A stretch of DNA of 64,000 bases, taken from Isurus oxyrinchus (lineage: Eukaryota). The notes beneath the pieces are model-generated. The model saw nothing but the letters and a program-made list of their open reading frames with translations. It did no database searches and was not told the origin of the DNA. Below are positions 29,231 to 64,000 of this stretch, in pieces (position 1 is the stretch's first letter; every line of letters begins with the position of its first letter). A program made the position numbers and the translations under genes. Where the stretch lies: NCBI GenBank assembly GCA_026770705.1, contig JANJGN010000102.1, positions 372,001 to 436,000 on the forward strand, in the 5' to 3' direction.

Positions 29231-29355
29231 AGGCAACGGCATCAGACAATCATAAAAACCCAGTACAGATTGCAATCTGCACAGTCGGCTTTGTGATTGG
29301 TGCCCTGGGGATGATGACTGGCCTCTGCCTGATTTTCTACAAGCGGGGAAATGAG
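29231..29355 (+). CDS. WA connecting peptide/transmembrane exon, EATASDNHKNPVQIAICTVGFVIGALGMMTGLCLIFYKRGNE
   Basis: ctaat branch-like motif plus tttacag| acceptor (phase 1), donor GAG|gtaaat (phase 0); CxxGxxxGxxGxxxG is the MHC class II alpha TM signature. Confidence 0.9.
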
Positions 29356-29619
29356 GTAAATCGATTTAATTGTCTCTGGGGGCGGATATCTCTGACCTTC
29401 CAGCCAAACAAATTGCTGAGAAATAGGTTTCTCTCCAAACTCCTCTTTGTTAATGAACTATGCTCAGCACCGGCAACAATCAGCACAGGAGAAATTAAAC
29501 TGTTCACGGTGGAATGAGTTTGAGGTAGTTAGTATTGATTGCTCAAATCTCACACCAAACTGCATGGGGTAGGGTAAAACTCGAATGAGACCAGTAAAGA
29601 ACTCTGTTCTCAGTTGAAA

Positions 29620-31530: not shown

Positions 31531-32102
31531 CTTCAATACCCCTGGACTAAGGAGGCTTCAGACATCCTGGTTCCCTGATCTCTTTGCCAGTGAGCCCTAT
31601 CCATTTGGGACAGTTTCGGTTTGGCTATCGTGCTACCTCCAAGGTCGATTAGCCTACCGAGATCTACCACATGCATGAAGAACAGCTGCCAGGGTGTGCT
31701 ATCTGAGGCCCATGGAAACTATAGCCCTTAAAGCAGCAGGGGAGAACGGCGGGTGGGCAGAATATTGAATCTGATGGCTGGGTGCTCGGTTTGGCAGACA
31801 CCCAGCACTACAAATATCTTTTGTCACAAACAAGGTGGGGTCCAGGGATCAGCAAACCATACCTGCGGAGGAGCCACAGGACTCGATGCTGAATGGAGAA
31901 GGGGCACAAGATGAAGGGACCCGTGTGGATCGGAGTGATCCAAACCAACCAGCAGAATGTTGAGCCAATCTGTGTCCTAATCTGATCTCACACACACACT
32001 CTTGTTCCTCAAAACTGTGTTTCCTTCAAAAAAAATTACATAATTTCTGCAAACGTGATACTGTTTTATTGTTAATTTTAGACTTTGTAAATAGTGTGTG
32101 TA

Positions 32103-40280: not shown

Positions 40281-41789
40281 TAGGAACAGGCAGGAAAGTG
40301 TAGCTGAGGTTACAGTCAGATCAGCCATGATCTTACTGAGTGACAGAGCAGGCTCGATGGGCTGAATGGCCTACTCCAGCTCTGAATTCCTGTGTCCTTA
40401 TGGTTTGACTGATTCTTTTTATTAAACAACATAATTCATGGTGGGATGTGGATGTTGCTGCCAAGGCTGCTGATTATTGCTCATCCCCTACAGTTGCCCT
40501 ATCCTGTGCACACCCCCAACACCCCCCTACCCCCATTGCAAAAAGTGCCAGCCTGGATGATGGGCCAAAGCGGGAGCGTCTTAACGCCGAGTGAGGCTGC
40601 CCTGTGCGCACGAGTGGAATTGAGGTCGCTTCGAAAAATGCCTCGGCGAACCCGACCAACTGCATTTTGGTCGTGGCCCCAATTCGAGGCACCAGAAGTT
40701 TCTACGAGGAAAGACTTTGAGCCTTTTCACCTTTTCTAACCAGCGGGCGGAGCAAAGCTACCAGCTGAGGTTTCCTGTCACCCCAATGGCATCATTCACA
40801 CTGTAAACTGTTCTCGTTTCTGTCAATCCAGTTTACGCATCACTTTTTCTTAAGCTTTGACTTACAGTCTCTCCAATTTCACCAGTAATTTGGAAGAAGG
40901 TCATTATATTTTTTTGACGTTCCTGCTCCGCCTTTTTTTTCTGGCAATGTGTTGGGATCCACGGGGTTGTGGTGGGGAGGTGGGGCATTGAAGCGCGCAG
41001 GAAGCAGCAGGTGGTTTCACACCCTCCCTCCCACCTCGTGTCTCTCTTGTGGTCAAGCTGCACTTTTTGAAATGTAAACGGTTGCCTGTTCCTCTCCGAC
41101 AGAGAGCGAGGGAGGGGCGTTGTCGACACGTGGGTGGGGAACGAGAGAAAGACAGGCAGCATCAGAGAGCCAGAAGGGAGTCAGAGGGACAGAGACGCGC
41201 GCACTCAGAGATAGAGCAAGATGGAGAGGCACACTAACAGATAAGAAGATAAAGAAGGTAGGAAGACGGGAAGAGAGACGGGGGCACAGAGTAAGAGGGA
41301 AGCGGAGACAGAAGGAGTGAGACAGAGGGAGGCAGGGAAAGGATGGACGGATGCAGTTAGACGTTGATAGAAAGGAGACTGCGGGAGGTAAAACAGGAGT
41401 TTGACAGGTACAGGTAGCGAGGAGGATACATGGGTGTATATGAAGAGGGAAAGATACAGCAGGGCATTTAGACAGTCAGGAGTGATATCAAGCCATACCT
41501 CCGCACACTGTACTCAGGAAAGGTTGACCATCTGCAGGAATGCTCAAAGGCTCAAGAGGGCCAAAGATGCTTCTGCATTGAAAAGGCAGAAGGGACAGTC
41601 TCTGTCATCTGGATTGAAGGGCCCCGTGTGAAATGGTGATCAGGGGGGCCAGTCCACACCAGCCAAACATCAGCACCAGAAACCTGAGGTGGGGCTTCTC
41701 TGGACAGGACTGAAAACCGACCCCACATCACTTGTCAACCGACTGGGGAGAGACGGAGGCAGAGGCTGTTACGAGGGGAAGACCTGGAA

Positions 41790-41823
41790 ATGGGTGGCAC
41801 TCAGCATAACCAGAGTTGTAAAG
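41790..41823 (+). CDS. Candidate first coding exon of a type III TM adaptor, MGGTQHNQSCK
   Basis: gaaATGg Kozak context, NQS sequon, donor AAG|gtaaga in phase 1, matching 42625. Confidence 0.45.
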
Positions 41824-42624
41824 GTAAGAGATGGAACCTGCTTTAACTCTTTGGGCGGAAAGGAGAAAAGTGGGCCCTACCAGGTGGTAGGGGTTGAGGG
41901 GTTTAGAAGGTGCTGTCGAAGGAGCCTTGGCGAGTTGCTGCAGTGCATCTTGTAGATGGTACACACACTGCTGCCCCTGTGCGTCGGTGGTGGAGGGAGT
42001 GAATGTTTGTGGATGGGGTGCCGATCAATCGAGGCTGCTTTGTCCTGGATGGTGTCGAGCTTCTTGAGTGTTGTGGGAGCTGCACTCATCCAGGCAAGTG
42101 GGGAGTATTCCATCACACTCCTGACTTGTACCTTGTAGATGGTGGACAGGCTTTGGGGAGTCAGGGGGTGAGTTATTCATCGCAGGATTCCCAGCCTCTG
42201 ACCTGCTCTTGTCGCCACAACATTTATATGGCTGGTCCAGTTCCGTTTCTGGTGAAAGGTAACCCGCCCCCTTAGGATGTTAGGATGGGGGATTGAGTGA
42301 TGGTAATGACATGAAAGATGGTCATTGCCTGGCACTTGTGTGGCATGAATGTAACTGGCACCATGAGAGTGGGACTCATAGGGGTGAATTCAGGGCAATA
42401 TTTCACACCAATCCATGGCAGGACAAATGGGTGTGGGGCCAAGCTAAGGAGATGTGAACAGGGGGCCGCAAGTGCAGGACATCTCTTTGGGAGGGGAATT
42501 GGTGGAACGGAGACAAATATCCCTGTAAGGGGAGAGGAAGAATGGCTGGGTCTTTGGGGTAGGGTTAAGAAGTGACCACCTCTCCTGTGCCTGTTTAACT
42601 CTGTGAACTGTGTTGACCTGGCAG

Positions 42625-42741
42625 GGTTACAGGATCTGTGCTGCAGTTCCCTGATGTGGACCATCTTTGGGGCCACAGGATTTTTCCTGTTCCTCTCTGT
42701 GACTTGTAACATTCTCTGCTGTGCTCGGAGCTACAGAAAAG
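42625..42741 (+). CDS. Transmembrane exon of a candidate adaptor, GLQDLCCSSLMWTIFGATGFFLFLSVTCNILCCARSYRK
   Basis: cag| ... AAG|gtaaca, 117 nt phase 1-1; single hydrophobic helix with extracellular Cys, SxxxN, juxtamembrane CC and basic residues; not an MHC TM pattern. Confidence 0.65.
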
Positions 42742-43019
42742 GTAACATGTCTTGCCAGACAGCTTCTGCTATAGGTGGCTTTGGGGGAGTTGAGGAGGGC
42801 TAGGTGTGGTTAGGTTGGTTTGGTCACAGGACGAGCAGGAGTGGCTCAGTCACTGGGGCTGAAATGCTTCCCACTCGCATCTAGATTGCGCAGTCACTCA
42901 ATGTCCTGCTGAGCAAACAGCATGTGGCCTCCCGGTATCAGCTACGGCTCAGTGTGTCAAAGGGTAGTGGGGTCAAGCCCCATCCAACACACAAAATCCA
43001 GGCTGACTCTTCTATTGCA

Positions 43020-43625
43020 GTACTGTCGGATGGTCAGTGTTGAGGGAGAGCCGCACTGTCGGATGGTCAGGACTCAGCGAGTGCCACACTGTCGGAGGGT
43101 CAGTACTGAGGGAGAGCCGCACTGTCGGAGGGTCAGTGCTGAGGGAGAGCCGCACTGTCGGAGGGTCAGTACTGAGAGAGAGCCGCATTGTCGGAGGGTC
43201 AGTACTGAGGGAGAGCCGCACTATCAGAGGGTCAGTGCTGAGGGAGAGCCGCACTGTCGGAGGGTCAGTACTGAGGGAGAGCTGCACTGTCGGAGGGTCA
43301 GTACTGAGGGAGTGCCGCATTGTCGGAGGGTCAGTGTTGAGGGAGCGCCGCACTGTCGGAGGGTCAGTGTTGAGGGAGCGCCGCACTGTCGGATGGTCAG
43401 GACTGAGGGAGTGCCGCACTGTCGGAGGGTCAGTACTGAGGGAGTGCCGCATTGTCGGAGGGTCAGTGTTGAGGGAGCGCCGCACTGTCGGAGGGTCAGT
43501 GTTGAGGGAGCGCCGCACTGTCGGATGGTCAGGACTGAGGGAGTGCCGCACTGTCGGATGGTCAGTACTGAGGGAGTGCCGCATTGTCGGAGGGTTAGTG
43601 CTGAGAGAGTGCCACACTGTCAGAG
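43020..43625 (+). repeat. 33-bp minisatellite expanded from a DeuSINE-like element (5' part from about 42940)
   Basis: Unit gtcagtactgagggagtgccgcactgtcggagg. Confidence 0.85.
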
Positions 43626-44349
43626 GTGTGTACCAGAGTAAAGAGTTAGTTTATCTTGCAGCTGCTTGCCTGACACAGTTAACCCTTACATAATGCAGGC
43701 ACGTATCTGGAATCTCTCGCCAGTAACAGACTTTATGCCCAGGGCTTACTTCTGCGCTGCTCAACCGCTGCAAGTGTGGGTGGGCTCAGGAAATGCTGCA
43801 ACCAATCCTGGGTGTGTCTGAAAAGTGACCTGGGCTGCCGTTGCCTTGGAATTTGGCCTCTCTCCATGGCCGAAGTCAAACGCGGCGAGGAGGAGAGGTT
43901 GTGCCCTCTTGAGGTGAGGTGTCTCCAGAGCTGAGCTTACCTCGGACCTGCTGGGGGGGGGGGTCTGCAGTCAGCACCGCTTTGTACTGACAACCCACAA
44001 AGCCCACGGTGACCCCAGGCATGTCCAGCGAGGGCAGACAGGGGACATGGAGCGACCTACAGGAGACAAACAGGCAGAGTATGGGGAAGGTGGTGAGGGG
44101 GAGGGGACAGTGTAGAGGGAGTTTTACTCAGTATCTAACCCCGTGCTGTACCTGTCCTGGGAGTGTTTGATGGGGACAGTGTAGAGGGAGCTCTACTCTG
44201 TATCTAACCCCGTGCTGTACCTGTCCTGGGAGTGTTTGATGGGGACGGTGTAGAGGGAGCTTTACTCTGTATCTAACCCTGTGCTGTACGTGTCCTGGGA
44301 ATGTTTGATGGGGACTGTGTAGAGGCAGTTTTATGCCTGTATACTTTGG

Positions 44350-45075
44350 ACTATGTCAGTATTTACAGGCGGTCTCTAGGGAGCGTGCCAATATTTACAG
44401 GGTGTCTATGGGGAGTGTGTGAGTATTTACAGGGGGTCCCAGGGGAATGAGTCAGTAGTTAGACGGGTCCCTGTAAGTATGTCAGCATTTAGAGCGGTCC
44501 CAGGGAGTGTGTCAATGTTTACAGGGGTTTGCTGGGGAGGGTGTCAGTGTTTACAGGGGTTCCCCAGGGAGTGTGTCAGTACTTACAGGGGTTCCCCAGG
44601 GAGTGTGTCAGTACTTACAGGGGGCCCCCGGTGAGTGTGTCAGTATTTACAGGGGATACCGGGGAGTGTGTCAGTATTTACAGGGGGTACTGGGGAGTGC
44701 GTCAGTATTTACAGGGGTTCCCCGGGGAGTGTGTCAGTGTTTACAGGGGGCCCCTGGAGAGTGTGTCAGTATTTACAGGGGGTACCGGGGAGTGTGTCAG
44801 TATTTACAGGGGGTACCGGGGAGTGTGTCAGTATTTACAGCGGGTACCAGGGATGTGTCAGTATTTACAGAAGACCCCTGGAGAGTGTGTCAGTATTTGC
44901 AGGGGTACCGGGGCGTATGTCAGTATTTACAGGGGGTCCCCGGAAGTGCGTCAATATTTACAAGGGATCCCCGGGGAGTGTGTCAGTATTTACAGGGTGT
45001 CCCTGGGGTGTGTGTCAGTGTTTACAGGGGGTCCCCGGGGACTGTGTCAGTATTTACGGGGGTCCCCAGGGAGTG
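44350..45075 (+). repeat. ~29-30-bp minisatellite; second array at 14480-14792
   Basis: Unit gtgtgtcagtatttacagggggtccccggga. Confidence 0.95.
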
Positions 45076-45214
45076 AACTAAAAGGGTTCTGAAGAAGAGT
45101 CATACGGACTCAAAACGTTCACTTTGTTTTTCTCTCCACAGAAACTGCTGATTTTTCCAGCACTTTTTGTTTTCGTTTCAGATTTCCAGCATCACCAGTA
45201 TTATGCCTTTATCA

Positions 45215-47825
45215 AATGAGGACATATGGGTAGAAGTAAAACACAAAAGGAGCAAACACACTTTTGGGTGTGTACTATAGGCCCCCAAAGAGTCAGGCCG
45301 AGATAGAGGATCAAATATGCAATCAAATTTCAGAGAAGTGTAAGAATAATAAGGCAGTAATAGTGGGGGATTTTAACTACCCAAATATTAATCAGGATAG
45401 TTTTAGTGTGCAAGGTAAGGAGGGAGCAAAATTCTTAAGTTGCATCCAGGAGAAACTTTTTAGCCAGTACATAGAAAGCCCAACAAGGAAGGGAGCAGTT
45501 CTGGACCTAATATTCGGAAATTAGCCTGGGCAGATGGAAGGCATATCAGTAATGGAGCATTTTGGAGATAATGACCATAACTCAGTTAGATTTAGGATAG
45601 TTATGGAAAAGGATAAGGTTGGGCCTGGAATAAAAGTTCTAAATTGGGGAAATGCTAATTTTAATAAGATGAGATACAATTTGGCACAAGTGGACTGGGA
45701 GCAGCTACTTGCAGATAAAACTGTGTCAGAGTAGTGGAAGGCATTCAAGGAGAAAATAGTGAGAGTACAAGGCAAATATGTTCCCGTAAAGATAAAGAGG
45801 GGCTCTAAGTCTGAAGAATGCTGGATGTCAAGGGACATAAAGGTTAGGATTAAGAGAAAAAGAGAAGCTTATGGCAGATACTGAGGGCTCAATATGGCAG
45901 AGTCCCAAGAGGAGTATAAAAAGTGCAAGGGGAACTTAATGGAAACTACGAAAGCTAAGAAAGTGCATGAGAAAGCATTGATGGGTAGAATAAAGGAAAA
46001 CCCAAAGGGGTTTTTTAAATAGATAAAGAGCAATAGAATAACTAGGGGAAGAGTAGGGTTAATTAGGGACCATGGAGGTAATCTATGTGTGGACCCGGAA
46101 GATGCGGGTACAGTCCTCAATGAATACTTTGCGTCGGTCTTCACATTGGAAAAGGACGATGCAGGTATAGACATCAGGGTGGAGGAATGTGAAATATTAG
46201 AGGAAATTAACATAGAGAGAGAGGAGGTGCTTGTGGGTTTAGCGGCCTTAAAAGTGGATATTTCCACAGGCCCGGATGAGATGTATCCCAGGCTGCTGAG
46301 GGAGGCAAGGGAAGTGATATCAGGGGCCCTGGCAGTAATTTTCAATTACTCTCTGGCCACAGGTGAGGTGCCGGAGGATTGAAGGATTGCTAACGTTATC
46401 CCATTATTGAAAAAGGAAGGAAGGGATAGACCAGGAAATTACAGGCCAGCCAGTCTAACCTCTGTGGTGGAGAAGTTACTAGAAAGAATTCTGAGGGACA
46501 AAATATATCTGCACTTGGAGAGAGACGGATTAATCAGGGATAGTCAGCATGGATTTGTTAAGGAAGGTCATGTTTGACAAATTTGATCTAATTTTTTGAG
46601 GAGGTAACCAGGAGTGTTGATGAGGGTAATGCATTTGATGTGGTCTACATGGACTTTAGCAAGGCTTTTGATAAGGTCCCTCATGGCACACTGGTCAAGA
46701 AAGTAAGAGCCTATGGGATCCAAGGCAAAGTGGCACATTGGATCCAAAATTGGCTGAGAGGCAGGAAGCAGAGGGTGATGTTAGAGGGATGTTTCTGTTA
46801 CTGGAAGTCTGTTTCCAGTGGGATTCTGCAGGGCTCAGTGCTGGGGCCCTTGCTGTTTGTGATGTACATAAATGATTTGGACTTAAATGTAGGGGCTATG
46901 ATGAAGAAGTTCATGGATGACGTGAAAATTGGTAGGGTGGTAAATAGTGAGGAGGATAGCCATAAACTGCAGGAGGATATCAATGGTCAGGTCAGGTGGG
47001 CAGAGCAGTGACAAATGGAATTCAACCCGGAAAAGTGTGAACGAATGCACATGGGGAGGGCTAACAAGGCGAGGGATTACACTATGAATGGTAGGATCCT
47101 GGAAAGTACTGAAGATCAGAGGGATCTTGATGTGCATATCCAGGGATTCCTGAAGGTAGCAGGGCAGGTAGATAAGGTGGTTAAGAAAGCATATGGGATA
47201 CTTGCAATTATTAGTCGAGGCGTAGAAGAGCCAGGAGGTTATGCTGGAACTGTACGAAATGCTGGTCAGGCCACAATTGAGTACTGTGTGCAGTTCTGGC
47301 CACCACATTATAGGAAGGATATGATTGCACTGGAGAGGGTACAGAGGAGATTTACCGGGATGCCACCTGGGCTGGAGGGTCTGAGCTATGAGGAAAGATT
47401 GTATAGGCTGGTGTTGTTTCCCTTGGAGCAGCGATGTTTGAGGGGGGACCTGATAGAGGTGTATAAGATTATGAGGGGCATAGATAGGGGGGACAGGAAA
47501 GCACTTTTTCCATTAGTAGAGGGGTCAATAACCAGGGGGCATAGATTTAAGGTAAGAGGTAGAAGAGTAAGAGGCGAGCTGAGGTGAAATTTTTTCACCC
47601 AGAGGTTGGTGGAAGTCTGGAACTCACTGCCTGAAAGGGTGGTTGACTCAGAAATGCTCATAACATTTAAGAAGTATTTAGATATTCACTTGCATTGCCA
47701 TGGCCTGCAGGGTCATGGGCCAAGCGCTGGAAAATGGAATTAGTGTAGTCAGATCTTTGTTGACCAGCATGGACACGATGGGCCAAATGGCTTCCTTCTG
47801 TGCAGTAAAAGTCTATGAGTCTATG
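45215..47825 (+). mobile_element. CR1 LINE ORF2 (APE endonuclease plus RT), degenerate
   Basis: VYYRPP, GDFNYP, YMDFSKAFDKVPH, QGSVLGPLLF; multiple stops. Confidence 0.93.
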
Positions 47826-47937
47826 GGGGTGAGAGAAACTGCCATTTACTTGGAATATTTTTGGCTGTATAAGAATATTTCAGGGGTTGTGGATATATTT
47901 AACCCAGTAGTACAACTTGGTGTTTTTCTGTTTCCAG

Positions 47938-48045
47938 CAAAGTTCATTAACCGGGCAGGACCATGTCGGATGAATCCATGCAATTCCAGTATGCGGTCCA
48001 GTAGCTCAAACACTTCTAACTCCTCCAACACCAGGTGCTCTTCAG
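47938..48045 (+). CDS. Ser-rich cytoplasmic exon AKFINRAGPCRMNPCNSSMRSSSSNTSNSSNTRCSS, similar to WB cytoplasmic exon 2
   Basis: tttttctgtttccag| ... CAG|gtaact, 108 nt phase 1-1; ungapped matches to 3217-3306 at F3, N13, S18, M19, S21, S24, S27. Confidence 0.55.
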
Positions 48046-50559
48046 GTAACTGTGGTTCTATATATCTGTCAACCTGTTTTCAGTCATGGGGCAGGATTTT
48101 TCCTATGGCGGGCGGGATGGGCGGGGGTAGGCACGGAGCCAATCGTCTCCTGCAATCTGCTCCGCACTGCCATTTTACACGGGCAGACCAATTAAGGCCC
48201 GCCCAGCGTAACACACGACCAGTAGTGCTCAGTGCTACTTGCGCGGGCAGGGGGAGGAGAGAGAGTCAGGGCCAGTGCTCCTTCGCGCATGTGCGCAAAA
48301 GAGCGCAGCAATCTCCCTGAGGCACAGAGCTGCCTCACGGAGATTGAATGGATATTAAAACAATTGAATAAATGATTTAAAAATGTATTTAAACATGTCC
48401 CCTCATGTGACTGAGTAATGCTGCATTCTGTAAATAACTCGAATATTAAGTAAAAAGATTGGTGTCTGGTTTCCTGTTTCACCGTCTGGCTTTGTAATCA
48501 GTTGCCATCTAACTCTTACTGTGAGATTTTGTTAAATACAAAATGGCTTCCACAAGGCCATATTCAACCAATTCATTATCAAGTACTTTGGGCTGTTCCT
48601 CAGAAAGATGATCAGAGTGTTATATAAACTCCAACTTTTCCTCCTTAATCTCATTCTCTTTTCCTTCCTAGAATGCAAAGTCAGATATGAAAGATTGTGG
48701 GAAAATTTGAAGAATTTTAATTCCATGTTTCTATCTGTATTCACTGCAGTTTTCTGATCAAACTTTATGTTATCATTGTCGTTCAGTCTCTCAGTGTCCT
48801 GTTTGTGTGTGAGCTTTCATTGGGATTTGTCATCCCTGTGCGTGCTGAAAACTGTCAATAGATTTACTGATCACTCTCACCATTTCCCCAAAACATGTTC
48901 AGTAAATAATGGGGTCTGTTTATTTGATGCATTAAAATACATTGGAATGAAAGCTGTCCCATTGTGTTGTGAATGTCTCATCTTACACTGTATTTGTGCT
49001 ACAACTGGTTAAAATTAAAGTATTCAGGAACTCTGGCATTTTAGCAATAATAGAGAGGTAAAGGAGTTAGATTGCTCCTGAAACGGGGTTGAGATTTGGG
49101 CGCCAGGCGATGTGTACAGAGCTAAAGAGCGACCGGTGCCAGGATTTTGGAAATCAGTCCGCTGGCCTCCTTCATGTCGGACCATGAATGATGGGTTTTG
49201 TCATGACCCCAGAGGCAGCTGACTACCCTTGCTGGAAATAATGATCATAACTGTGCTCAATCTGTACACAGGTTAATGAGCCAATCCTCTGCTATGTTGG
49301 GTGCCCCTCAATCCCACACCTGCTATCTCGCTGTTGCATCTGCAGCTGAAGGTGGGCAGAAGAGAGGGGCTGTGGTGGTTTACGCCCCCACCCTCCATTG
49401 ATCGCATGCAACGCCATTGGGTCATCTTCAAGATGGCAGTAGAGGCAGGTTTTCAATGGATGAGTGGATTGGAGGACTTTCAGTAAATTCGCCCCCTTAC
49501 AGGTGGCTTACACTGAAGGAGCTGCTCTTTCTGCAAACAGTTGGCAGGTCTTTTGTCATTTCTGGTGCCAACTCTGACCAGGAGTCTGCCACCTGCACCC
49601 AAAATGTTCATCAGGGTGACTATGCGCCCCTGCTTTCCAGAGGCAGCCCCTGGCTCACGTGCCATGACCCTCACCACCTAGGCTCGACCTCTCATCCTGA
49701 AAGGCAGCCTGCAGCATGTACTCACCTCTTGGACTGGGACTTGAATCCATGGCCATCGGACTCAGAGGTGGGAGTGCTACCGCTGTGGGAAAGAGCAAGA
49801 ATGGGCCCTTGCAGCTTTAACATGGAATACGTTTCGAAGGCATTTTAGAAAAACGGCGACAGGAGAAGAATGAAGAGAATCTTTGCCAAGCCCCAGCAGA
49901 AGAATTGAAGAGGAATGACTGAACGTTTCGTTAGAGAAATCGGTTTCAGATCTTGAAAGGTGGGTTTTGAGGGAGGGTCCATAGCATGTGGGCCGAGGAG
50001 GCTGAAGGCAAGGCTGCTAATAGTGGGGGCAAGGGGGTTTTCCCTCGATCTTCCCCTCCAGTAACTGTTTCTGTCTACCATCTGCTCTAGTTATGTGACT
50101 GAAGTGTCTTATTTTTCTTGCTCTGATGTTCTGTACTAACTTCCTCTCTTCTGCCGCCATTTCCAGCGCTTCCTCATTAGCCTTTCTGTGTTGGGGTCAT
50201 GCCGAGCATTCTCCCATAAGTCCACATCTCTAACGCGTTCAGCTTATCAATAGTCTCTTGGTTTGTTGTCCATGTCTCTGAGTGATATAACATTGGTGTA
50301 TAAGAAGCAAGATTCACACTGTTGCTGTATTCTTGAGCAGGAGTTTACTAGTGCGGCTTGCTGAAAGAAACAAAGTTCCGATGCCAGTTACCCAAGGCAT
50401 GAACTGCCAACCTCCCGATGTCCTGCAACACGAACAGATCCCACGGATGTGTAATACAGAGTCTTTGGGAATTATGGCCAGGCACACCTCAAAGAAAGAT
50501 GTCATGATGCAACCCTAATATCTCAGATATAGTTATACAATAATAGTCTTTTTGTATGT

Positions 50560-51822
50560 AAGCGTGGACTACAGGACAATATAGATGGGCTGGTCAGATG
50601 GGCAGAGCAGTGGCACATGGAATTTAATCCTGGGATGTGTGAGGTGATATATTTTGGGAGGACTAATAATGCAAGGAAGTACACGACGAATGGTAGGACC
50701 GTAGGAAGTACAGAGGATCAGAGGCACCTTGGTGTGTATGTTCCTAGATCCCTGAAGACAACAGGACAAGTAGATAAGCTGGCTAGGAAGGCATATGGGA
50801 TACTTGCCTTTATTAGTCAAGGCATAGAATATAAGAGCAGAGAGGTTTTGATGGACCTGTAGAAAGCATTAGTTAGGCCACAGCTAGAGCACTATGTGCA
50901 GTTCTGGTTGCCGCCCTGTAGGAAGAATGTGATTGCACTGGAGAAGATGCAGAGGATATTCACCAGGATGTTGCCTGGGCTGGAGCTTTTCAGCTATGGA
51001 TAGGCTGGGATTGTTTTCCTTAGAGGAGAGTAAGCTGAGGGGTGACCTGATTGAGGTGCACAAATTATGAGGGGCCTAGATAGAGGAGATAGGAAGAAAC
51101 TTTTCCCCTTAGTAGTGAGGTCAATAACCAGGGGGTATAGATTTAAGGTAAGGAGCAGGAGGTTTAGAGAGAGTTTTAGGAATGATTTTTCACCCAGAGG
51201 GTGGTGGTGTATCTGGAACTCGCTGCCTGAAAGGGTGGAAGAGGCAGGAACCCACACAACATTTAAGAAGTATTTGGATGAACACTTGAAACACCACAAC
51301 ATACAGGGCTATGGGCCAAGTGCTCGAAAATGGGATTAGAATAGATAGGAGCTTGATGGCCAGCACAGACACGATGTGCCGAAGGGCTTAGAACAAAGAA
51401 GGCTGAGAGGTGACTTGATTGAGGCGTATAAAATTATGAGGGGAATAGATAGAGTGGACAGGATAAAATTGTTTCCCTTGGTGGAGAATTCTAGAACCAG
51501 GGGACATAGATTCAAGAAAAGTGGCAGAGGGTGTTGGGGGAACATGAGGAAGAACTTTTTTACGCAGAGGGTAGTGGGTGTCTGGAATTCGCTGCCAAGT
51601 TGGTGGTAGAGGCAGAAACTCTAAACTCTTTTAAAAAGTACCTGGATTTGCACCTTAAGTGCTGTAAGCTGCAGGGCTTTGGGCCCGGTGCAGGAAGGTG
51701 GGATTAGAAAGGGCACCTGGGTGTCCTCGGGCTGGCATGGACAAGATGGGCCGAATGGCCTCCTTCTGTGCTGTAACTTTTCTATGGCTTCCTTCCATGC
51801 TGCAAAACTCTATGACTCTATG
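50560..51822 (+). mobile_element. Two tandem CR1 3' fragments
   Basis: MEFNPGMCEV..., RRLRGDLIE..., FFTQRVV. Confidence 0.85.
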
Positions 51823-52382
51823 TAGCACCTCAGCATTCTGATGCTAAGATTCAGCTCCAGTTTCTTTGATGTTAAAACATCCTTCATTTTGACAAAGCCG
51901 ATCTTGGTTCTCTCAATTTTCCTTCGGACCTCACAATCTCATCTCCCAACGCCTGTGATAATCTGCTCAAGATGCATGAACCTTTTCTCTTTTTAAAAAT
52001 TCTTTCATGGTGTCACTGGCTAGCCCAGCATTTATTGCCCATCCCTAATTGCCCCTTGAGAAGGTGGTGGTGAGCTGACTCTTAAGCCGCTGCAGTCCAT
52101 GTGGTGTAGGTACACTCACCATGCTGTTAGGGAGAGGGTTCCAGGATTTTGACCCAGCGACAGTGAACAAAGGGCCAATGTATTTCCAAGTCAGGATGGT
52201 GTGTGTGGCTCGGAGGAGAACTTCCAGGCGCTGCTGTTCCCATGCGTTTGCTGCTCTTGTCCTTCGAGGTGATGGAGGTTGTGGGTTTGGAAGATTCTGG
52301 GGGAGGAGGGTGAGCGGGGCAAGTGGGGAACTTCACACATGCGTGCAAGTGCACACTGGAAAAGCTCCCTGAGGCACAGAGA

Positions 52383-52690
52383 TAAAAACAAAAAACTGCG
52401 GATGCTGGAAATCCAAAACAAAAACAGAATTACCTGGAAAAACTCAGCAGGTCTGGCAGCATCGGCGGAGAAGAAGAGTTGACATTTCGAATCCTCATGA
52501 CCCTTCAACAGAACTGAGTGAATCTAAGGAGAGGGGTGAAATATAGTTCTGTCGAAGGGTCATGAGGACTCGAAACGTCAACTCTTTTCTTCTCCGCCGA
52601 TGCTGCCAGACCTGCTGAGTTTTTCCAGGTAATTCTGTTCTTGTTTTGGGTGAAATATAAGCTGGTTTAAGGTGGGGGCTGGGGGGGGTT
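52383..52690. mobile_element. Inverted pair of Penelope terminal repeats with two opposed hammerhead-like motifs
   Basis: 52410-52514 is the reverse complement of 52546-52650; both match 8437-8560. Confidence 0.8.
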
Positions 52691-53698
52691 GGGACATGTT
52701 ACAAATGAGGTGTAAATTTTTGAATTTTATTTTTAATTGCTGTTAGAAACCTCATCACGCCCGTAGATGAGGTTTCCTAAAAAGTGCAAAGGCCGCTTGA
52801 CCTTTTCGCCTGCTCACCAACCGTAACTTGGACAGGCACTGAAAAATTTAAGTTAATTAATACTTTAATGGCCTTAATAGGCCTTCTAATTGTCAGCGGG
52901 CGCACTGCCGATTCCCGCGCGCACCCACTGACCTAACTATCGTTCGAATGCGCATTGGTGTCAGGACATTCGCCTGACGTCATCGCGCGTCATTTTACGC
53001 TCGAGCAGGTCAGGCATGTACCCACTCGGGGAGGTGAAAATTCTGCCTTCAGTAAGGGTGACCATGAAATTATCATCGATTGCTGTAAAAATCCATCTGG
53101 TTCACTAAAGTCCAAATCTGCCGTCCTTACCCGATCTGGCCTACATGTGACTATTAACTGCCCTCTGAAATGGCCCTAGCAAGTCACTCAGTTCAAGGGG
53201 CAATTAGGGATGGGAACAAATACTGGCCTGACCAGCGATGCCTGCATCCCATGAAGGAATACATCTTTTAAAAAAAAGTTTACATAACATCTTTCACATC
53301 CCCAAGACATTCCAAAACCTTTCACAGCCGGGAGGTTACGTTAGAAATGCAGTTCCTGCCGTGACACGGACAAAAGTGGCAATTCATTTTGCACAGCAGG
53401 ATCCCAGGAAAGGGGAGTGAATGAACCACCAGTCAGTTCTCTTTTGGTGACCTTGGTTGAAGGAGGAATGTTGGCCTGGAGATTGAGGACACCTTTCATA
53501 GACAACCCACGGAGAATCTTTCCCTCCTCCTCAGACTGCCAGACCTGGCGTCAGCTTAATGTCTGGTCCACAAGGCCACCCTCCGACAATACGGCACTCT
53601 CTGGGCATTGTAGTCGAGCCTCAGCCCCCTCCGGGTATATATTCAATGGGATTTGGAACAGTCGGATTGAGAGGTGACAGACCTAACAATTGAACCAG

Positions 53699-53769
53699 GC
53701 ACACTCGCCAAAAAAGATCAAGGGAAAAAGAGAAGGAAAATCAGCTCAGAGGAAATGTGCAGTTTTCCT
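53699..53769 (+). CDS. Candidate adaptor internal exon, GTLAKKDQGKKRRKISSEEMCSFP
   Basis: cctaac branch-like motif, ccag| (weak tract), donor |gtaagt; phase 1-to-0 bridges to 54367. Confidence 0.4.
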
Positions 53770-54366
53770 GTAAGTGAGGGGATAAGACGATTCGAGGATT
53801 CAATAGGGACAGTAGAGAGAAACTATTTCCCCTGGTGACAAGAGACCAGAACAAGGGGGCAAAACCTTAAACTGGGAGCCAGGCCGTTGAGGGGTGATGT
53901 CAGGAAGTGCATCTTCGCACAAAGGGGAGTGGAAATCTGGAACTCTCTCTCCTCCACCCCACCTCTCCACCACAAAAAGCTGTCAAGGCCGCAGGGTTAA
54001 CTGGAAATTTCTAAACTGAATTTAATAGATTTTTTGTTGGGTAAGGGGATTAAGGGTCACCGAGGCAGGGTGGGCGAATGGAGTTAAGATGTAGATCAGG
54101 CATGATCTTATCGGATATCTGAACAGGCTCGTGAGGCTGAAGGGCCTCATCCTGTTCCTGTGTAACATGCTCCAGAGACTGAATAGTCTCCTCCTGCTCC
54201 TGTGTAACAGACTTGTGGGGGGCTGAAGGGCCTCGTCCTGTTCCTGTGTAACAGACTCAAGAGGGGCTGAATGACCTCCTCTTGTTCCTGTGTAACAGGC
54301 TCGAGAGGGGCTGAATGGGCTCCTCCTTAACCTCATTCTGTGCCCATCTGGACCACTTCCCCACAG

Positions 54367-54507
54367 GCAGTTCCCGTACCCTCCAGCTACCCCACAGAGA
54401 TCACATCGGCTGCCAAAAAAACCCTCAGATATGCAGCATTAGATATAGGGAACTTGACAGCCCTTCCAGGAATTGTACAGCGTTGCACAGAGTATCATAT
54501 TCGCTAA
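54367..54507 (+). CDS. Candidate adaptor terminal exon with ITIM, AVPVPSSYPTEITSAAKKTLRYAALDIGNLTALPGIVQRCTEYHIR*
   Basis: ccttaac branch plus pyrimidine tract plus cacag|; phase-0 frame contains LRYAAL (LxYxxL) and a distal TEY. Confidence 0.45.
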   Translation, partial: AVPVPSSYPTEITSAAKKTLRYAALDIGNLTALPGIVQRCTEYHIR

Positions 54508-54789
54508 GAGGCATTAGCATCATGAAATCAAAGGTATAGTTAATCCCAAACAAGCGTTACCAGAAACTCTTAGTTCTGTGAGAAATGCAAAAAGCATAAA
54601 TCAAATCAACTGTGACTGAAACCATGGGGATGACGATCATAAAATAATTCACTGCGCCGGACCATGGGAGAGGGAATCTGTTCACAGCGAAGCAGGCTTT
54701 ACCATGGCTCTTTAATTCAGTATCTCACTTCGTTCTCAGGTTGCAGGATCACCATCTCCATTCACCCCAGTGAATCATCGAAACAGCTC

Positions 54790-57700
54790 TTAGCCACTCA
54801 GCCCCTTGAGTCTGCTCCCCCATTCAATAAGGTCGTGGCTGATCTGATTGTGGCCTCGACTCCACTTTCCTGCCTGTCCCTCGTAACCCCCGACTCCGTT
54901 GTCAATCAAAAATCTGTCTAACTCGGCCTTGAATATATTCAATGAGTCAGCCTCCACTTCTCTCTGGGGGAGAGAATGCCACAGACTGACAACCTGGAGA
55001 GAAGAAATTCCTCCTCATCTCCATCTTCAATGGGAAACACCTTATCCTTAAATTGTGTTTAATGAGGGGAAACATCCTCTCAGCATCCACCCTGTCAATC
55101 TCCATTTAAGAATCTGACATGTTTCAATAAGATTGCCCCTCATTCTTCTAAACTCCAATGGATAGAGGCCCGACCTGCTCAATCTTCCTTCATAAGACAA
55201 ACCCCTTCATCCCAGAATGAGACGGGTGAACCTTCTCTGAACTACTTCCATCGCAATTATATCATTTTCCAAATAAGGAGACCAAAACTGTACACAGCAC
55301 TCCAGATGCGCTCTCACCAAGGCCCTGTACGACTGCAGCAAAACTTTCCGACTTTTCTATATTGCATTCCCCTTGCAATAAACACCAACTTGCCACTTGC
55401 CTTCCTAATCACTTGCTGCATCTGCATACTAACTTTTTGTAATTCATGCACCAGGACACCCAGATCCCTCTGTACCTCAGAGTTCCACTGTCTCTTCCCA
55501 TTTAAATAATATGCTGCTTTTCAAATCTTCCTGCCAAAGTGGACAGGTTCACATTTTCCCACATATCCACCTGCCAAATCTTTGCCCACTCGCTTAACCC
55601 ACTGCCTTTGTAGAATATACCTCAACTACCCTCCTACCCATCTATTCCCCTCACTTGAATGGCTTCCTCTACCACGGTGCCATGATCAGTTTGCTCATCC
55701 ATCTTGCAGCCCCCAGAGAATTGAGTAGTTACAGCAAGGCCAAAGACCATTCAGCCCATCGAGCCCAGGTCAGTTCTCTGCGAAAACAACTCATCTAATC
55801 CCACTTTCCTGTAGCCTTGAAATTTTTACTCTTCAGTTGGTTATGCAATTCACTTTTGATAGCCTCAATTGACCCTGCCTGCGCCACTCTCAGGCAGAGC
55901 GTTCCGGATCCTAACCACTCGCTATGTGAAAAAGTTTTTCTCCGTGTCTCCGTTGCTTCTTTTGCCAATTGTCTTGAATCTGAAAACCGAATAACTACTG
56001 CTGTAGAGAGGGCTTTAAACTGATTAGGGGGTTGGGGAGGGGTAGGGCTCTGGAGAGGGGATACTTAGGCTTGCAAAGCAAAAGGATATGGCAGCGTTGC
56101 AGGGCAGCTATTTAGGTAATGACATCCCGAGTGTGACAGGAAGGGACAGTGTGTGCAAACACAAAAAAAAGCAGCAAATAGGGTCAAGGGGAGGGGTGCG
56201 GGGGAATGATTAAAAGGCAAAATTAATGGATTTTTATTTAACTGCACATAGTATTCCAAACAAAAATAAATGAATTAATGGTACAAATAGAGCTTAGTGT
56301 ATATGATCTTATAGCCGTGATGGACACATGGTTACAAGGAGATCAAAGCTGGGAACTAAATATTCAGGGGCATGTGACTTTTCGAAAGGACAAGCAGGAA
56401 GGAAAGGGTGGCAGGTAGCTTTGTTAGCATGAGGTGGAATAAGTACGTTAGCAAGAAATGATCTTGGATCGGGAGATGTGGAACCCATATGGGTGGAGGT
56501 AAGAAATAATAAGGGGAAGAAGACATTGGTGGGAGTAGTCTATAGGCCCCCTAACAGTAGCTAATCTGTAGGACAGAGAATAAATCAGGAGATAATGAGG
56601 GCATGTAAAAAAGGCAGTATATTAATCACAGGTGACTTTAATCTTCATGTAAGTTGGGTAAATCAAATTGGCAGAGGTAGCCATGAGCAAGAATTCATAG
56701 AGTGTATTTGGGACAGTTTCCTAGCACAATATGTTATGGATCTAATCAGGGATCAGGCTATTTTGGATCTGGTAATCTGTAATGAGGTGAGTTGCTGCAG
56801 TGCATCTTGTAGATGGTACACACACTGCTGCCACTGTGCGTCAGTGGTGGAGGATGTGAATGTTTGTGGATGTGGTGTCAAACAAGCGGGGTTGCTTTGT
56901 CCTGGAAGGTGTCGTGCTTCTTGAGTGTTTTTGGAGCTGCACTCATCCAGGCAAGTGGAGAGTATTCCATCACACTGCTGACTTGTGCCTTGTAGATGGT
57001 GGACAGACTTTGGGTGATCAGGAGATGAGTTACTTACCTGGTCTTGTAGCTATAGTATTTATGTGTCTGGCCCAGTTCAGTTTCGGGTCAGGATGTTGAT
57101 AGTGGGGCAATTCAGCAATAATAATGCCATTGATTGTCAAGGGCAATGGTTAGATTCTCCCTTGTTGGAGATAGCCATTGACTGGCACTTAGGTGGCACG
57201 AACATTAGTTGCCACTTATCAGCCCATTCTATGGTGTTTAGGAGAATGAGAAGTGATCTCATTGAAATGTATGAAATTCTGGGAGTGTTTGACTGGGTCG
57301 ATGCTGAGAGGCTGTTCCCCATCTTTCACCCCCCATTCCCACCTCCAGCTGGAGAGCCTAGAACAATAGAACATGCGGGGCGGCGGGAGGGCGGGTCACA
57401 GTCTCAGGGTGAGGGGTCAGCCATTTCAGACTGAGATGAGGGGAAAATTCTTCACTCCGAGGGTTATGAATCTTTGGAATTCTCAACCCCAGAGGATTGT
57501 CAGTCACATTTGATATGGAGATCGAGAGATTTCCCGGCATTGAGGGAATTAAGGGATATGGGGGTGGACAGAGAGTAGAGATAAATTTTTGATTGGGGGA
57601 TTAAGGGATACCAGGAGTGGGAGAAGGAGCGGAGGTAGATTTTTGATTGGGGGGATTAAGGGATACGGGGAGTGGGTGAAGATAGATTTTTGATTGGGGG

Positions 57701-59125: not shown

Positions 59126-59383
59126 GAGCACACATTTTGCAGGCACAGTTCTCCATCGAAAAATCTCATCATTCAGCAGTTAGCCTGAGGTTCGCTTATG
59201 AAGGAACAGAACTCATCCAGTTCAACTACATCACCAATCAGTTCGTGGCCACTGAGCCGCTGGCAAAGTCTTTCGCTGAGCAACTTAACAGCGACCAGAA
59301 GAAGGTCAGAAGGTACATTCGCTATGGCTCCTTTGCAAATCTGGTGTCAGATGTGGTTTTACGGGCCACTCGCCAACTGATCG
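59126..59383 (+). CDS. W-category beta chain (WB) beta1 exon, 86 aa (GAHILQAQFSIE...RFAYEGTELIQFNYITNQFVA...RATRQLI)
   Basis: Strong acceptor ttctcttccttccag|, donor G|gtaagt, 258 nt phase 1-1, open. GAHILQ and FAYEGTE match class I alpha2 GSHTLQ and YAYDGKD. No cysteines. Confidence 0.85.
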
Positions 59384-59565
59384 GTAAGTGCGGAAAAGAG
59401 CGGGTAGGGTGGGGGTGGGAGCGAGAAGTGAGATTAATTGGTTAGAACTTTCAAAGAGCTAACACGGGCATGGTGGGCAGAATGGCATCATCCTGGGCTG
59501 TGGGGTGCGGTGTGTTACCGCATCAAGCATGTACACACGTCAGGAGGCCCCAGCTGACTGAACTC

Positions 59566-60343
59566 TGTCATGAAGTTATTAATGTATACAATATTTTGGA
59601 AAATATTTTTCCTTTGAAATAGAAGTTTAGTCTGCTGGTGTGTCTTAATTGGATTACAGTCAGCTAGTCTGGGTGCTTGGATATGTACTAGTTTGAGATG
59701 TAAACAGAGGGGTAGAGTGTATTTGCATTTTTTGAATAGAGCATTGAAGAAGTGGGGTGAAACCTTGATGCCTTTCTAGCAGATACCAAGCAATATGTTT
59801 TTATTGCTAATAAAATTGGTACAATGAATGGGGTTTTATTGTTAAAAGGTAAAGTTCAAAGAGTCTGGTCAGACAATGAGAATTTGAATTCAATCAGGGG
59901 TGGTAGGTATAACTTCAGTAGTTTTTGGGTGTGAAAGCAGAGGCAATGTGAGATCAAAAGGCAGCTGCAAGCCTCCAGCTGGCTCCAGAGTGAAAGGAGC
60001 CTCATTTTGAATTTGTAAGGTGAAAATGCTTTGCCTGGTGTTTGGTTAAGTCTATGGGTTGCTGTTGCCCTAATGGAGATTAGTTTGGGAATTTGTTAAA
60101 AGATGTGATAGTAGTAATTTGCCGCCATGTGTATATATATATATATATATTCTAAACCTGTGCAAATTAATAAAATGTTTCAATTAGTTTAATGTAAACC
60201 CTGAAGAACTGATGGTCTGATTCCTGAATTTAGAGTCGCATCTCGAACATAACACTTAAAATTATAGCTTATGACAGTTGTTTAAAGTTTCCCTCTGGGA
60301 TTTTTTAAATAACTCCATTTTACCAACAGCATTGGTCATAACA
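59566..60343. mobile_element. Solo LTR (Gypsy-like) in the WB beta1-beta2 intron
   Basis: TGTCATGA...TCATAACA termini, 4-bp TSD actc at 59562-59565 and 60344-60347, internal aataaa. Confidence 0.8.
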
Positions 60344-60829
60344 ACTCTGCGCATGTAAAGAGTTGTGAGCACTTGGCCGGCCGGCAACAGTGGTGGGGGG
60401 AGTCATTGATGTTGTTCACAGCTTGAGCTAATCGAGCAACTTTCCGAACCTCTCTGCATTTCCCTGCAGAGAGTGTCTTTTGCAGTCCACCTCGCTTGAG
60501 ATCCTTCCTGTCAAAACTACAACATTTTAACTGTTTATATATAATGTCTTTAACACAAGAAAAACATCCCTGAGGCACAACGTGCCAGGATTATGAAGCA
60601 ACCTTTGACCCTGAGACACGCCAGGAGATATAAGGGATGGGTGACCAAAAGCTTGCTCACAGAGGTCAATTTTTAAGGAGCATCTTAAAGGAGGAGAGAG
60701 AGGGAGAGGGAGAAGTTTAGGGAGGAAATTTAGGGCCCCAGGCAGCTGAAGGCACAGCCGTCAATAGTGGAGCGATAGAAATCGGGGGATGCTCAAAAAA
60801 ACAGGTCTGGAGGGACACAGAGATCTCGA

Positions 60830-61110
60830 AGGGTTATAGGAGGTTACAGAGATAGGGTGGGTTGTTGGGGCTGGAAGAGGTCACAGAGGAAGGGAGGGTT
60901 GTAAAGGCTGGAGGAGGTTACAGAAGTAGGGAGGGGTGTAGGGGCTGGAGGAGGTTACAGAGATAGGGAGGGTTGTAGGGGCTGGAGGAGGTTACAGAGA
61001 TAGGGAGGGTTGTAGGGGCTGGAGGAGGTTACAGAGATAGGGAGGGTTGTAGGGGCTGGAGGAGGTTACAAAGGTAGGGAGGGTTGTAAGGCTTGGAGGA
61101 GGTTAAAGAG
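60830..61110 (+). repeat. 37-bp purine-rich minisatellite
   Basis: Unit ggaggaggttacagagatagggagggttgtaggggct. Confidence 0.9.
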
Positions 61111-62192
61111 GTTAAATTGGCTGTCTGGCAGGAGGCAGAGAGTGGGGATAAGGGGGTCCTTCTCAGGATGGTGGCCGGTGACTAGTGGACTTCTGCAGGG
61201 CTCAGTGTTGGGAGCACAACTTTTCACATTATACATTAATGATCTAGATGAAGGAACTGAGGGCATTCTGGCTAAGTTTGCAGATGATACTAAGATAGGT
61301 GGAGGGACAGGTAGTATTGAGGAAGCAGGGAGGCTGCAGAAGGAGTTAGACAGGTTAGGAGAATGGGCAAAGAAGTGGCAGATGGAATACAATGTAGGGA
61401 AGTGTGAGGTCATGTACTTTGGTAGAAGAATAGAGGCATAGACTATTTTCTAAATGGGGAGGGAATTCAGAAATCTGGAGTGCAAAGGGACTTGGGAATC
61501 CTAGTCCAGGATTTTCTTAAGGTTAACTTGCAGGTTGACGTGGTAGTTAGGAAGGCAAATGCAATGTTGGCATTTATTTCGAGAGGACTAGAACATAAAA
61601 GCAGGGATGTGCTGCTGAGGCTTTATAAGGCTCTGGTCAGACCACATTTAGAATATTGTGAGCAATTTTAGGCCCCGTATCTCAGGAAGGATGTGCTGGC
61701 CCTAGAGAGGATCCAGAGGAGGTTCATGAGAATGATCTCAGGAATGAAAGGCTTAACATATGAGGACTCTGGGTCTATACTCAATGGAGTTTAGAAGGAT
61801 ATGGGGGGATCTGATTGAAACTTACAGAATACTGAAAGGCCTGGATAGAGTGGATGTGGGGAAGATGGTTCCATTAGTAGGAGAGACTAGGACCTGAGTG
61901 CACAGCCTCAGAGTAAAGGGAAGACCTTTTAGAACAGAGATGAGGAGAAACTTCTTTAGCCAGAGAGTGGTGAATCTATGGAATTCATTGCCACAGAAGG
62001 CTGTGGAGGCCAGGTCATTGAGTGTATTTAAGACCAAGATAGATAGGTTCTTGATTGGTAAGGGGATCAGAGGTTACGAGGAGAAGGTGGGAGAATGAAG
62101 TTGAGAAACATTTTATGCCATGATTGAATGGCGGAGCAGACTCGATGGGCCGATTGGCCTAATTTCTGCTTCTATGTCTTATGGTCTTATGG
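61110..62192 (+). mobile_element. CR1 LINE 3' fragment inserted into a 37-bp minisatellite
   Basis: QGSVLGAQLF, FADD, (tatggtct)n tail; the minisatellite resumes at 62196. Confidence 0.9.
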
Positions 62193-62622
62193 TCTAAGAG
62201 ATAGGGAGGGTTGTAGGAGCTGCAGGAGGTTGCCATAAGATGTAGGAGCACAAGTAGGTCATTCGGCCCATCCAATCTGCTCTGCCATTCAATGAGATTA
62301 TGGCTGATCTGATAAACCTCAAATCCGCTTCCCTGCCTTTTCCCCATAACCCTTGATTCCCTTATTGGTTAAAAGTCTGACACTTCCCTCCATGTCCAGC
62401 CACACAGCAAAGATGCTCTCAGGCGGTGTACTTGAATGATAGAATTTTGCAGCACCAAAGGAGGCCATTCAGCCCATTGACTCTGTGCTATAAATCTGCT
62501 GAGGCCACTGGAATTTTCATTAATCTGGATTGAGGAAATCTGGGTGATTTTATCTGAAGTCTTTTCTGCTCTGCCGCATTTTCTGAGGAGTTTTGAATCC
62601 ATTGGCCTTCCATCTTCTGTAG

Positions 62623-62701
62623 CCAAGCCTTCCATCAACATAACCACCCTCCGCTTGCACCCTTACTTCTGATCTGCCGTGTGGATGGATTTTATCCAAG
62701 A
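62623..62701 (+). pseudogene. Disrupted WB beta2 exon (5' fragment only)
   Basis: Acceptor ccatcttctgtag| then AKPSINITT; LLLICRVDGFYPR follows in a shifted frame (in-frame TGA 62670-62672); the rest of the C1 domain was not found before 63942. Confidence 0.75.
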
Positions 62702-63941
62702 GTATAGCTCAGTATAGTTTTCTTATTTGTAAATAAATCTACCCATTAGTTTTAGCCTGAACGGAATGATTTACTTATAGTATCTACAATGTTTAAAGTC
62801 AGGAGGAGGATTATTTTGGAACTAAAGGGTGATTGTTAATGTACGAGCTTTCAGGGTGTGAGCAAAGGCGTAGGCTTTGACTCACAGGGCGCTTAAACTT
62901 CATTTAAATAAAATGTCATTCTGTCTCACAAGAGGCTCTTCAGTGCCTTTGGTCTACAAAGGGAGGATGGCGATTCCTGCCTATTTCAATTCTGCAATTA
63001 ACGGGTGTTTGCTTAGGCAAGGGTAGGTGTACAGGTCAGCCATGAGCTAACTGAACGGCAGGTGGAACAGGCTCAAGACACAGAATGGCCTGTTCCTGTG
63101 CTCTGATCAACATTCAGTTACACAACATTGAGCTTGGCAATGGGCCCTCCGCTGTTGAAAACCTTGCTGATGTTCACATGAGGAGGAGGAGTGGGCCAGA
63201 GGGCAACCAGCACCCATGGAGCGTAAGCCCTATTGACTTCAGGGAGAGAGGTGAGAAGACTTGGCAGAATCTGTTACATTAGCCAGCGTCCATGTTGATC
63301 TGACTTGTTAACACAGATCTGTAATAAAAATGCAGCAAAGTCTTTGTGAAGTTCTGGGGAAGAAACAGAGGAAGCATTCAAAAGCAAAACTGCATGTATT
63401 GTTAAAACATGGATTCATTTCTTTTCATTTCCTTCTAGACTCCTTCTAGACTCCTTCTAGTGGTACATGTTTGTATGGTAGCCTTGAGCAGACAAAATGC
63501 ACATTGCAATTTTCAATACACTGCGGTCATGTATATCCAAAGCCACTGATTAATGAGTGGTGTCTATTAACAGTGCATAGCACCAGAGAGTGCTGGGGCT
63601 TTAGCCTGCATATGCACAAGAGCCTCTTGTGAGACAGAATGACATTTTATTTAATGAAGTTGTTCCTCTCATTGGCAAGCTTAGTTGCATCCCTGGGGCA
63701 GCAATGTGCAGGGACGGGTGCAGCAGAAACGTCACTTGATTGGTTTCTGGCACTTTGTAGAAGCAAGATGCCAGGGATGTAGATGCCCGCCTGACAGCAG
63801 CCATGCCTGCCCACCCGCCCTCCCGTCTGTGTTGTGGCCCATAATCTCAAGGTGCCCAAGGGCCTGGGGAAAGAAACAAAGTTGTTCATACTAACCCGGC
63901 GCTGTGATATCTTCCGACCCTAATTCTACTTCGTTCCCCAG

Positions 63942-64000
63942 CTCCTAAGATGAAAAGCTGGCCGACTTACGGATACGTGACCGGGATAGTATTCATGATA
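63942..64000 (+). CDS. Start of WB connecting peptide/TM exon, APKMKSWPTYGYVTGIVFMI (cut by window edge)
   Basis: ccctaat branch plus pyrimidine tract plus cag|, phase 1; VTGIVF resembles IVGILF of the minus-strand WB TM. Confidence 0.65.

Follow-up and report, generated by a model that had tools for sequence, protein, structure and literature searches.

A SIT1 5′ end probably joined to a WB Nds5L 3′ end at a tandem duplication junction beside the W-category gene cluster of Isurus oxyrinchus

The stretch of DNA considered here, the window, is 64,000 nucleotides of the Isurus oxyrinchus assembly, positions 372001-436000 of contig JANJGN010000102.1 (C102; coordinates with that prefix refer to the contig, the others to the window), and the feature in question lies at 41790-54507 within it. 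Five segments there, 41790-41823, 42625-42741, 47938-48045, 53699-53769 and 54367-54507, had been put forward as the exons of an unannotated gene for an inhibitory transmembrane (TM) adaptor. They are AG/GT bounded at these coordinates, and chained in frame they give 120 or 156 amino acids with an NQS-Cys ectodomain, one TM segment with SxxxN, a CC pair with basic residues and LRYAAL. Most likely, as far as can be judged from the DNA, the five do not form one new gene. The feature is probably the junction of a tandem segmental duplication at which the 5′ end of SIT1 became joined to the 3′ end of WB Nds5L, leaving a chimeric remnant that is likely non-functional. The real exon sequences in it are exons 1-3, with exons 4 and 5 no more than chance.

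Exons 1 and 2 are evidently a copy of the 5′ end of shark SIT1. The coding part of exon 1, at 41790-41823 (+) with the start methionine and an NQS sequon beside a cysteine, has 0 differences from the intact gene at C102:483910, and exon 2, at 42625-42741 (+) with the TM segment, SxxxN, CC and basic residues, has one, which is silent. Upstream of exon 1 there are 20 differences in 1499 sites from the intact SIT1 upstream region (~98.7% identity over 1.5 kb). As a protein query the TM exon is 85-97% identical to shark SIT1-like proteins, with three matches among 4 candidates (basking shark XP_078391011, white shark XP_041035582 and the horn shark ‘SIT1-like’ XP_067880248). With the basking shark protein, tblastn places exons 1-2 at C102:340.6, 413.8 and 483.9 kb, and the remaining SIT1 exons at C102:486.0-491.5 kb only. 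Searching the 4.98-Gb assembly gave three copies of SIT1 exon 2 and single copies of exons 4 and 6; exons 3 and 6 are single-copy within the 664 kb examined.

The intact SIT1 orthologue, at C102:483910-491548 (+) about 48 kb right of the window, is a complete open reading frame (ORF) for a leaderless protein of 206 amino acids with ICYAKL, which fits the consensus of an immunoreceptor tyrosine-based inhibitory motif (ITIM), and it directly flanks the W-category cluster. Five cytoplasmic tyrosines are invariant in 16/16 aligned relatives, and their order in sharks is that of the five human SIT motifs (YGNL, YTSL, the ITIM tyrosine, YASV and YANS; PMC2193021). All five motifs are present in the intact neighbor and missing from the window copy, which has no exons 3-6. 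A sequon next to a cysteine, followed by a TM segment, is how that source characterizes SIT1, and a short ectodomain of this kind with a single TM segment is what window exons 1-2 encode. In a tree of 23 proteins that includes the full-length shark proteins and leaves out the window copy, the nine from sharks and rays join tetrapod SIT1 and stand apart from TRAT1 with support of 100/100; the neighbors named SIT1 come from gar, tetra, axolotl, caecilian, alligator and turtle, and the TRAT1 clade consists of two proteins. Against Pfam PF15330, proteins P0001 and P0003 score 24 and 25.9 bits, just under the cut-off of 27.6, and the window exons alone gave no match in that scan. A profile search for solved relatives of the SIT1 profile returned as its best hit an orexin receptor TM segment at E 0.048, a chance match.

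The original prediction had therewith named the right class for exons 1-2, a leaderless type III transmembrane adaptor with SIT1 among the names offered; its extension to the whole chain and to the ITIM finds no support. Nor does the claim of an unannotated gene find any, as a SIT1-like annotation stands on relatives in 3 of 11 proteins and intact SIT1 adjoins. Two other adaptor identities were considered and rejected. TRAT1 forms a separate clade, and a TRAT1-like locus lies on a different contig from SIT1, at C18:77593976-77611137 (-). For LST1, none of the five sequences scanned matches PF05083 at E up to 1, and the similarity atlas offered a lead of 0.84 only.

The ‘optional’ exon 3 of the chain, at 47938-48045 (+), duplicates cytoplasmic exon two of WB Nds5L, being 91% identical to the ancestral copy at C102:256837-256944, and 31 of its 35 residues, compared by eye, are those of the published white shark WB Nds5L tail (Dataset S3 of PMC8713811). 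Downstream of it the terminal 3′ untranslated region (UTR) exon of WB Nds5L is retained at 48672-48951 (+), with an acceptor of 8.9 bits, ATTAAA at 48931 and another signal at 49014. In phase 1 this exon supplies 28 codons that include VRYERL, and a 3-nt block difference between 48672-48756 and C102:258735 makes the motif VRYERS in the parental copy and VRYERL in both duplicates. The stop-bearing WB Nds5L exon that should stand between exon 3 and the terminal exon is deleted in the window. The leader, beta1, beta2 and TM exons of WB Nds5L occur only in the ancestral copy, at C102:245.7-252.5 kb, and none lies upstream of window exon 3. The proposed exon chain is not supported, exon 3 belonging to WB Nds5L and exons 4-5 lying past its retained terminal exon and poly(A) signals.

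Between the two gene ends the duplication junction occupies 44106-45075, as placed by blastn against C102:478-500 kb and 230-300 kb and by the junction sequence itself. SIT1 intron 2 homology stops at about 44106, some 100 nt short of SIT1 exon 3; a minisatellite follows, and then the WB Nds5L intron from 45075. Self-alignment reveals a recent duplication with a shift of ~70 kb, its blocks 98.3-99.6% identical, and an older copy that is mostly 90-97% identical. The ancestral left cluster consists of the head-to-head pairs WA DS5L/WB Nds5L, WA DS10L/WB DS1L and WB DS3L/WA Nds3L, and then SIT1; the white shark W cluster is described as three pairs, in agreement with the ancestral order here (PMC8713811). 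Exon losses are complementary among the duplicate copies. Inside the older duplication junction there is also an extra WA Nds3L cytoplasmic exon, inverted, at C102:343648-343738 (-).

The near identity of exon 2 among the copies might have been put down to coding selection on the duplicated exon, and this was rejected. Both flanking introns are equally homogenized, with 0/87 and 1/254 sites differing from the older copy, and because the low divergence runs into both of them homogenization is the better explanation.

The arrangement goes back to an old duplication of the region that begins at the WB Nds5L tail and reaches into SIT1 intron 2, and an illegitimate junction in SIT1 intron 2 probably produced the first chimera before the split from white shark. 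The recent ~70-kb duplication copied the junction a second time, probably by unequal crossing-over, and the copies afterwards lost exons piecemeal; gene conversion probably holds exon 2 and the sequence on either side of it alike. Retention of the SIT1 upstream region makes transcription of the window copy plausible. In the expected transcript exon 2 would be followed by the WB tail exon, and the simplest end point would be the terminal exon at ~48951, upstream of exons 4-5, so that the simplest mRNA, exons 1-2-3 plus the terminal exon, would encode 114 amino acids with one VRYERL from the former UTR. The ectodomain and TM segment would be kept, and SIT1-like signaling by the product would not be expected because it has none of the five SIT1 tyrosine motifs.

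Several observations sit uneasily with a mere remnant. The junction is old enough to be common to white shark, where the RefSeq model XP_041035582 joins exons 1-2-3 to WB DS1L, with an exon 3 distinct from white shark's own WB Nds5L tail. In both duplicates exons 1-3 stay free of stops and frameshifts, with splice sites preserved, and the 5 silent and 5 replacement changes that separate exon 3 from its parent are not clearly neutral. A contig from sequencing run X1, covering 41163-41821 with 29 mismatches and 2 gaps, resembles in its counts the older truncated copy, with 27 and 1, more than the intact gene, with 10 and 1. That run is labeled as another organism than runs X2 and X9, which are described next, and its contig cannot be assigned to a copy; the contig's end at 41821, 2 nt short of the donor of exon 1, is a single-run hint.

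The search for sequencing runs containing the feature gave none recorded as RNA; the DNA runs X3-X8 contain 41-43% of the words of 54300-54900. When 4 of the 12 runs were compared with 19.9 kb at 82% likeness, the matches were dominated by repeats, with 15 joints listed and 2471 more beyond the listing, so that neither depth nor joints bear on the proposed junctions. Among the 32 contigs listed, 4 cover sequence of the feature that is not repetitive. Three of these, of low depth and from runs X2 and X9 (a single sample, guessed to be RNA), have mismatch/gap counts of 4/0, 9/15 and 29/7, and these counts, on which alone the comparison is made, are those of the parental SIT1 and WB Nds5L copies and not of the window copy. 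One of them, from X2, begins at 48670, close to the acceptor at 48672, and is preceded by 216 unplaced letters, which would fit splicing of the parental gene into the 48672 exon; the match is one of counts and the splice is inferred. At most the contigs show parental transcripts, and they are no evidence that the duplicates are silent.

The open frame through exons 1-3 raises the question of a functional tail-swapped SIT1, a type III protein of 114 amino acids from exons 1-2-3 and the WB terminal exon, the last of which holds the stop. Pairing with full-length SIT1 would use the shared ectodomain cysteine and TM segment, and the product would dilute the tyrosine motifs while bringing an ITIM-consensus VRYERL of its own. 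Retention of the SIT1 upstream region, acceptors of 5.6 and 8.9 bits, the open frame, the poly(A) signal and the presence of VRYERL in both duplicates as against VRYERS in the parental copy all suit it, as does the disulfide-linked dimer formed by human SIT (PMC2193021). It is nevertheless unlikely: its last exon is a former 3′ UTR, the ITIM consensus is at chance level in the locus, the white shark model does not use the 48672 exon, no selection signal is seen, and the contig shown over that exon is of parental type.

Very unlikely is the proposal, closer to the white shark model, that the SIT1 start drives read-through into the WB DS1L remnant to give a two-TM chimera as in XP_041035582. The RefSeq model exists, all of its exons map in order in this locus, and the WB DS1L remnant is without its own leader; yet a type III first TM segment would be expected to put the beta1 domain in the cytosol, beta2 is missing, and XP_041035582 may itself be a prediction artefact.

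Exons 4 and 5 are likely not real exons. They lie in a repeat-rich segment of 4.35 kb (50252-54604) that is missing from the ancestral left copy, from which it was likely deleted, as suggested by short ATCAA homology at both segment edges and by homology of an old inverted copy that crosses the right edge. Exon 4, at 53699-53769 (+), is unsupported: it has no polypyrimidine tract, and a dispersed repeat begins at its donor. With -5.7 bits the exon 4 acceptor is the weakest scored, the 16/16 reference acceptors of the locus reaching 3.1-11.3 bits with a simple, self-made matrix of generic frequencies; the references are the best AG within 30 nt and hence biased upward, the authentic exon 2 acceptor has only -1.6 bits, and the exon 4 score is not decisive alone. 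Just 2 full-length matches to the exon 4 region exist, each 100% identical, besides 14 partial ones, none of which starts before the donor.

Exon 5, at 54367-54507 (+) with LRYAAL, is likely non-coding, both diverged types of homologue having TGT (Cys) for the TAT tyrosine codon and indels that break the frame between copies. An old inverted homologue of its region, ~68% identical and with frames not conserved, is at 15027-15385 (-) between WB DS3L exons and the WA leader, and so by position alone in a WB DS3L intron, the WB DS3L leader not having been found in the leader scan. A chain that skips exon 4 misses the LRYAAL frame; the other frame holds an ITIM consensus of its own, IRYREL. In control tiles of 16.4 kb each, which include duplicated units and hence are not independent, an acceptor no weaker than that of exon 5 opens onto a terminal frame with an ITIM consensus in 36/56, and onto one with a second tyrosine as well in 14/56; in the interval from exon 2 to WB beta1, 4 of 29 candidates do the same. 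The predicted ITIM is thus a motif found here at chance frequency whose tyrosine is missing from both diverged homologue types. The exon 5 peptide had no relative among 25 candidates (only proteins of at least 82 amino acids, a weak search), and a best atlas score of 0.77 with no Pfam match, also weak negatives. Two other origins were rejected. Exons 4-5 are not the tail of some other receptor gene, since the genome has just two full copies of them, identical to each other; nor is exon 5 part of a dispersed repeat, since the core of its acceptor is present 5 times, always in the W cluster.

It is accordingly hard to credit that exons 4-5 were recruited after the fusion to put a new inhibitory LRYAAL tail on the SIT1 TM segment. 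Such a chain is in frame, the exon 5 acceptor is plausible at 4.3 bits with a 30-nt core conserved in 5/5 copies, and an ITIM with a second tyrosine is the rarer finding in the tiles. The LRYAAL frame, however, needs exon 4 with its poor acceptor, the stronger terminal exon and its poly(A) signals must be skipped, the homologues have cysteine for tyrosine as well as indels, no protein relative was found in the weak searches, and the segment is not found in the ancestral copy, which had no 5′ exons to splice into it. Just as improbable is that the 70-kb unit of the window is a retained haplotype duplicated in assembly and that only the older left junction is real, for which the 98.3-99.6% identity of adjacent units might speak, but there is up to 1.7% difference upstream of exon 1, and the identities of the exons would be unchanged, the junction being present in the older unit and in the white shark model as well.

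The adaptor exons had also been described as nested between WA and WB, which is correct by position, except that the WA gene is WA Nds3L and the right-hand WB is a WB DS1L remnant of the next repeat unit. They are the end of one repeat unit and are not nested inside a WA/WB pair. WA Nds3L, at 16538-31950 (+), has its leader, alpha1, alpha2, TM and cytoplasmic exons open, with alpha1 and alpha2 frameshifted in the left copy. The WB DS1L remnant, at 59126-64000 (+) with beta1 at 59126-59383 and the start of the TM exon at 63942, has lost its leader and beta2 exon, and it is not the partner of WA Nds3L. That partner is the broken WB DS3L copy, head to head with it at 1136-9083 (-), whose beta1 is deleted and whose beta2 has an 11-nt deletion. 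The coding exons of WA DS10L are gone from the window, and the W proteins of the window are close to those of white shark. A shared W leader had been supposed, but ancestral WB DS1L has a leader of its own, lost in the window copy; splicing of the WA leader to the TM exon is also not borne out, WA Nds3L having its own downstream exons and six AATAAA before SIT1 exon 1.

Decay of WB DS3L and WA Nds3L is complementary between window 1136-31950 and C102:296-333 kb, beta1 and an undeleted beta2 of WB DS3L being present only in the left copy and WA Nds3L being open only in the window and right copies. A WB/WA heterodimer would need chains from different units because intact WB and WA parts sit in different copies. 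Inside broken WB DS3L there is at 5739-8031 (+) a reverse-transcriptase-like ORF of 685 amino acids with an overlapping 3′ ORF, presumably Penelope-like. Further afield, a neighbor domain scan covering 145 of 772 candidate ORFs revealed exons for HECT and UBM domains, all minus, at C102 ~677-708 kb (L083:1531-1887, L085:7290-7769 and L086:1367-1828); the gene, which is taken to be HUWE1-like, is ~190-215 kb right of SIT1. At C102 ~103-108 kb (L043:751-5674, +) lies an element like a long interspersed nuclear element, with an ORF1 of ZCCHC3-type RNA-binding and zinc-knuckle domains and with endonuclease, RT and zf-RVT domains in separate frames.

In kind this is an ordinary partial gene duplicate at a segmental-duplication boundary, and much of it is already known: other sharks have an annotated SIT1, the W genes are in the literature, and an uncharacterized RefSeq model already represents the chimera. 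What the duplication remnant adds is a corrected annotation, with the odd white shark model XP_041035582 explained as a SIT1/WB mosaic, and, in the linkage of SIT1 to the W cluster in this shark, a small datum on where W genes arose. The literature listings searched gave no paper stating that linkage, though the SI Appendix of PMC8713811 (Fig. S11, white shark cluster) may already show SIT1 or these remnants. More would follow from a lamnid-shark chimeric gene, in which the SIT1 promoter, ectodomain and TM segment captured a W-chain cytoplasmic exon and an exonized 3′ UTR with an ITIM consensus, but this is unlikely. If true, it would be a lymphocyte adaptor pairing with SIT1 and retuning antigen-receptor thresholds, in two copies in this genome and in part common to white shark, and if expressed and selected a dated case of a new immune adaptor built from SIT1 and the tail of a major histocompatibility complex chain.

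Among known systems the closest for exons 1-2 is SIT1 itself (signaling threshold-regulating transmembrane adapter 1; PF15330; XP_067880248 and XP_078391011), a disulfide-linked homodimer of lymphocytes that recruits SHP2, with which they share the sequon beside a cysteine, the TM segment and the juxtamembrane CC, and from which the window copy differs in being without exons 3-6 and all five tyrosine motifs. The shark SIT1 proteins for their part are without the 22-amino-acid leader described for human SIT (PMC2193021). TRAT1 (TRIM) and LST1 are alike in the general type III adaptor layout, and TRAT1 shares PF15330. Exon 3 and the 48672 exon correspond to the WB Nds5L 3′ exons, and the downstream beta1 and TM exons to WB DS1L, of the W-category genes (Okamura et al. 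2021, PMC8713811), the window pieces differing from these genes as duplicated remnants without their own 5′ ends; compared with the three pairs described there for white shark, extra degenerate units here extend the cluster to SIT1. The nearest counterpart of the whole arrangement is the uncharacterized white shark XP_041035582.1 (LOC121272835), which has the same exons 1-2-3 in the same order, continues into WB DS1L beta1 and TM, and uses neither exon 4 nor exon 5.

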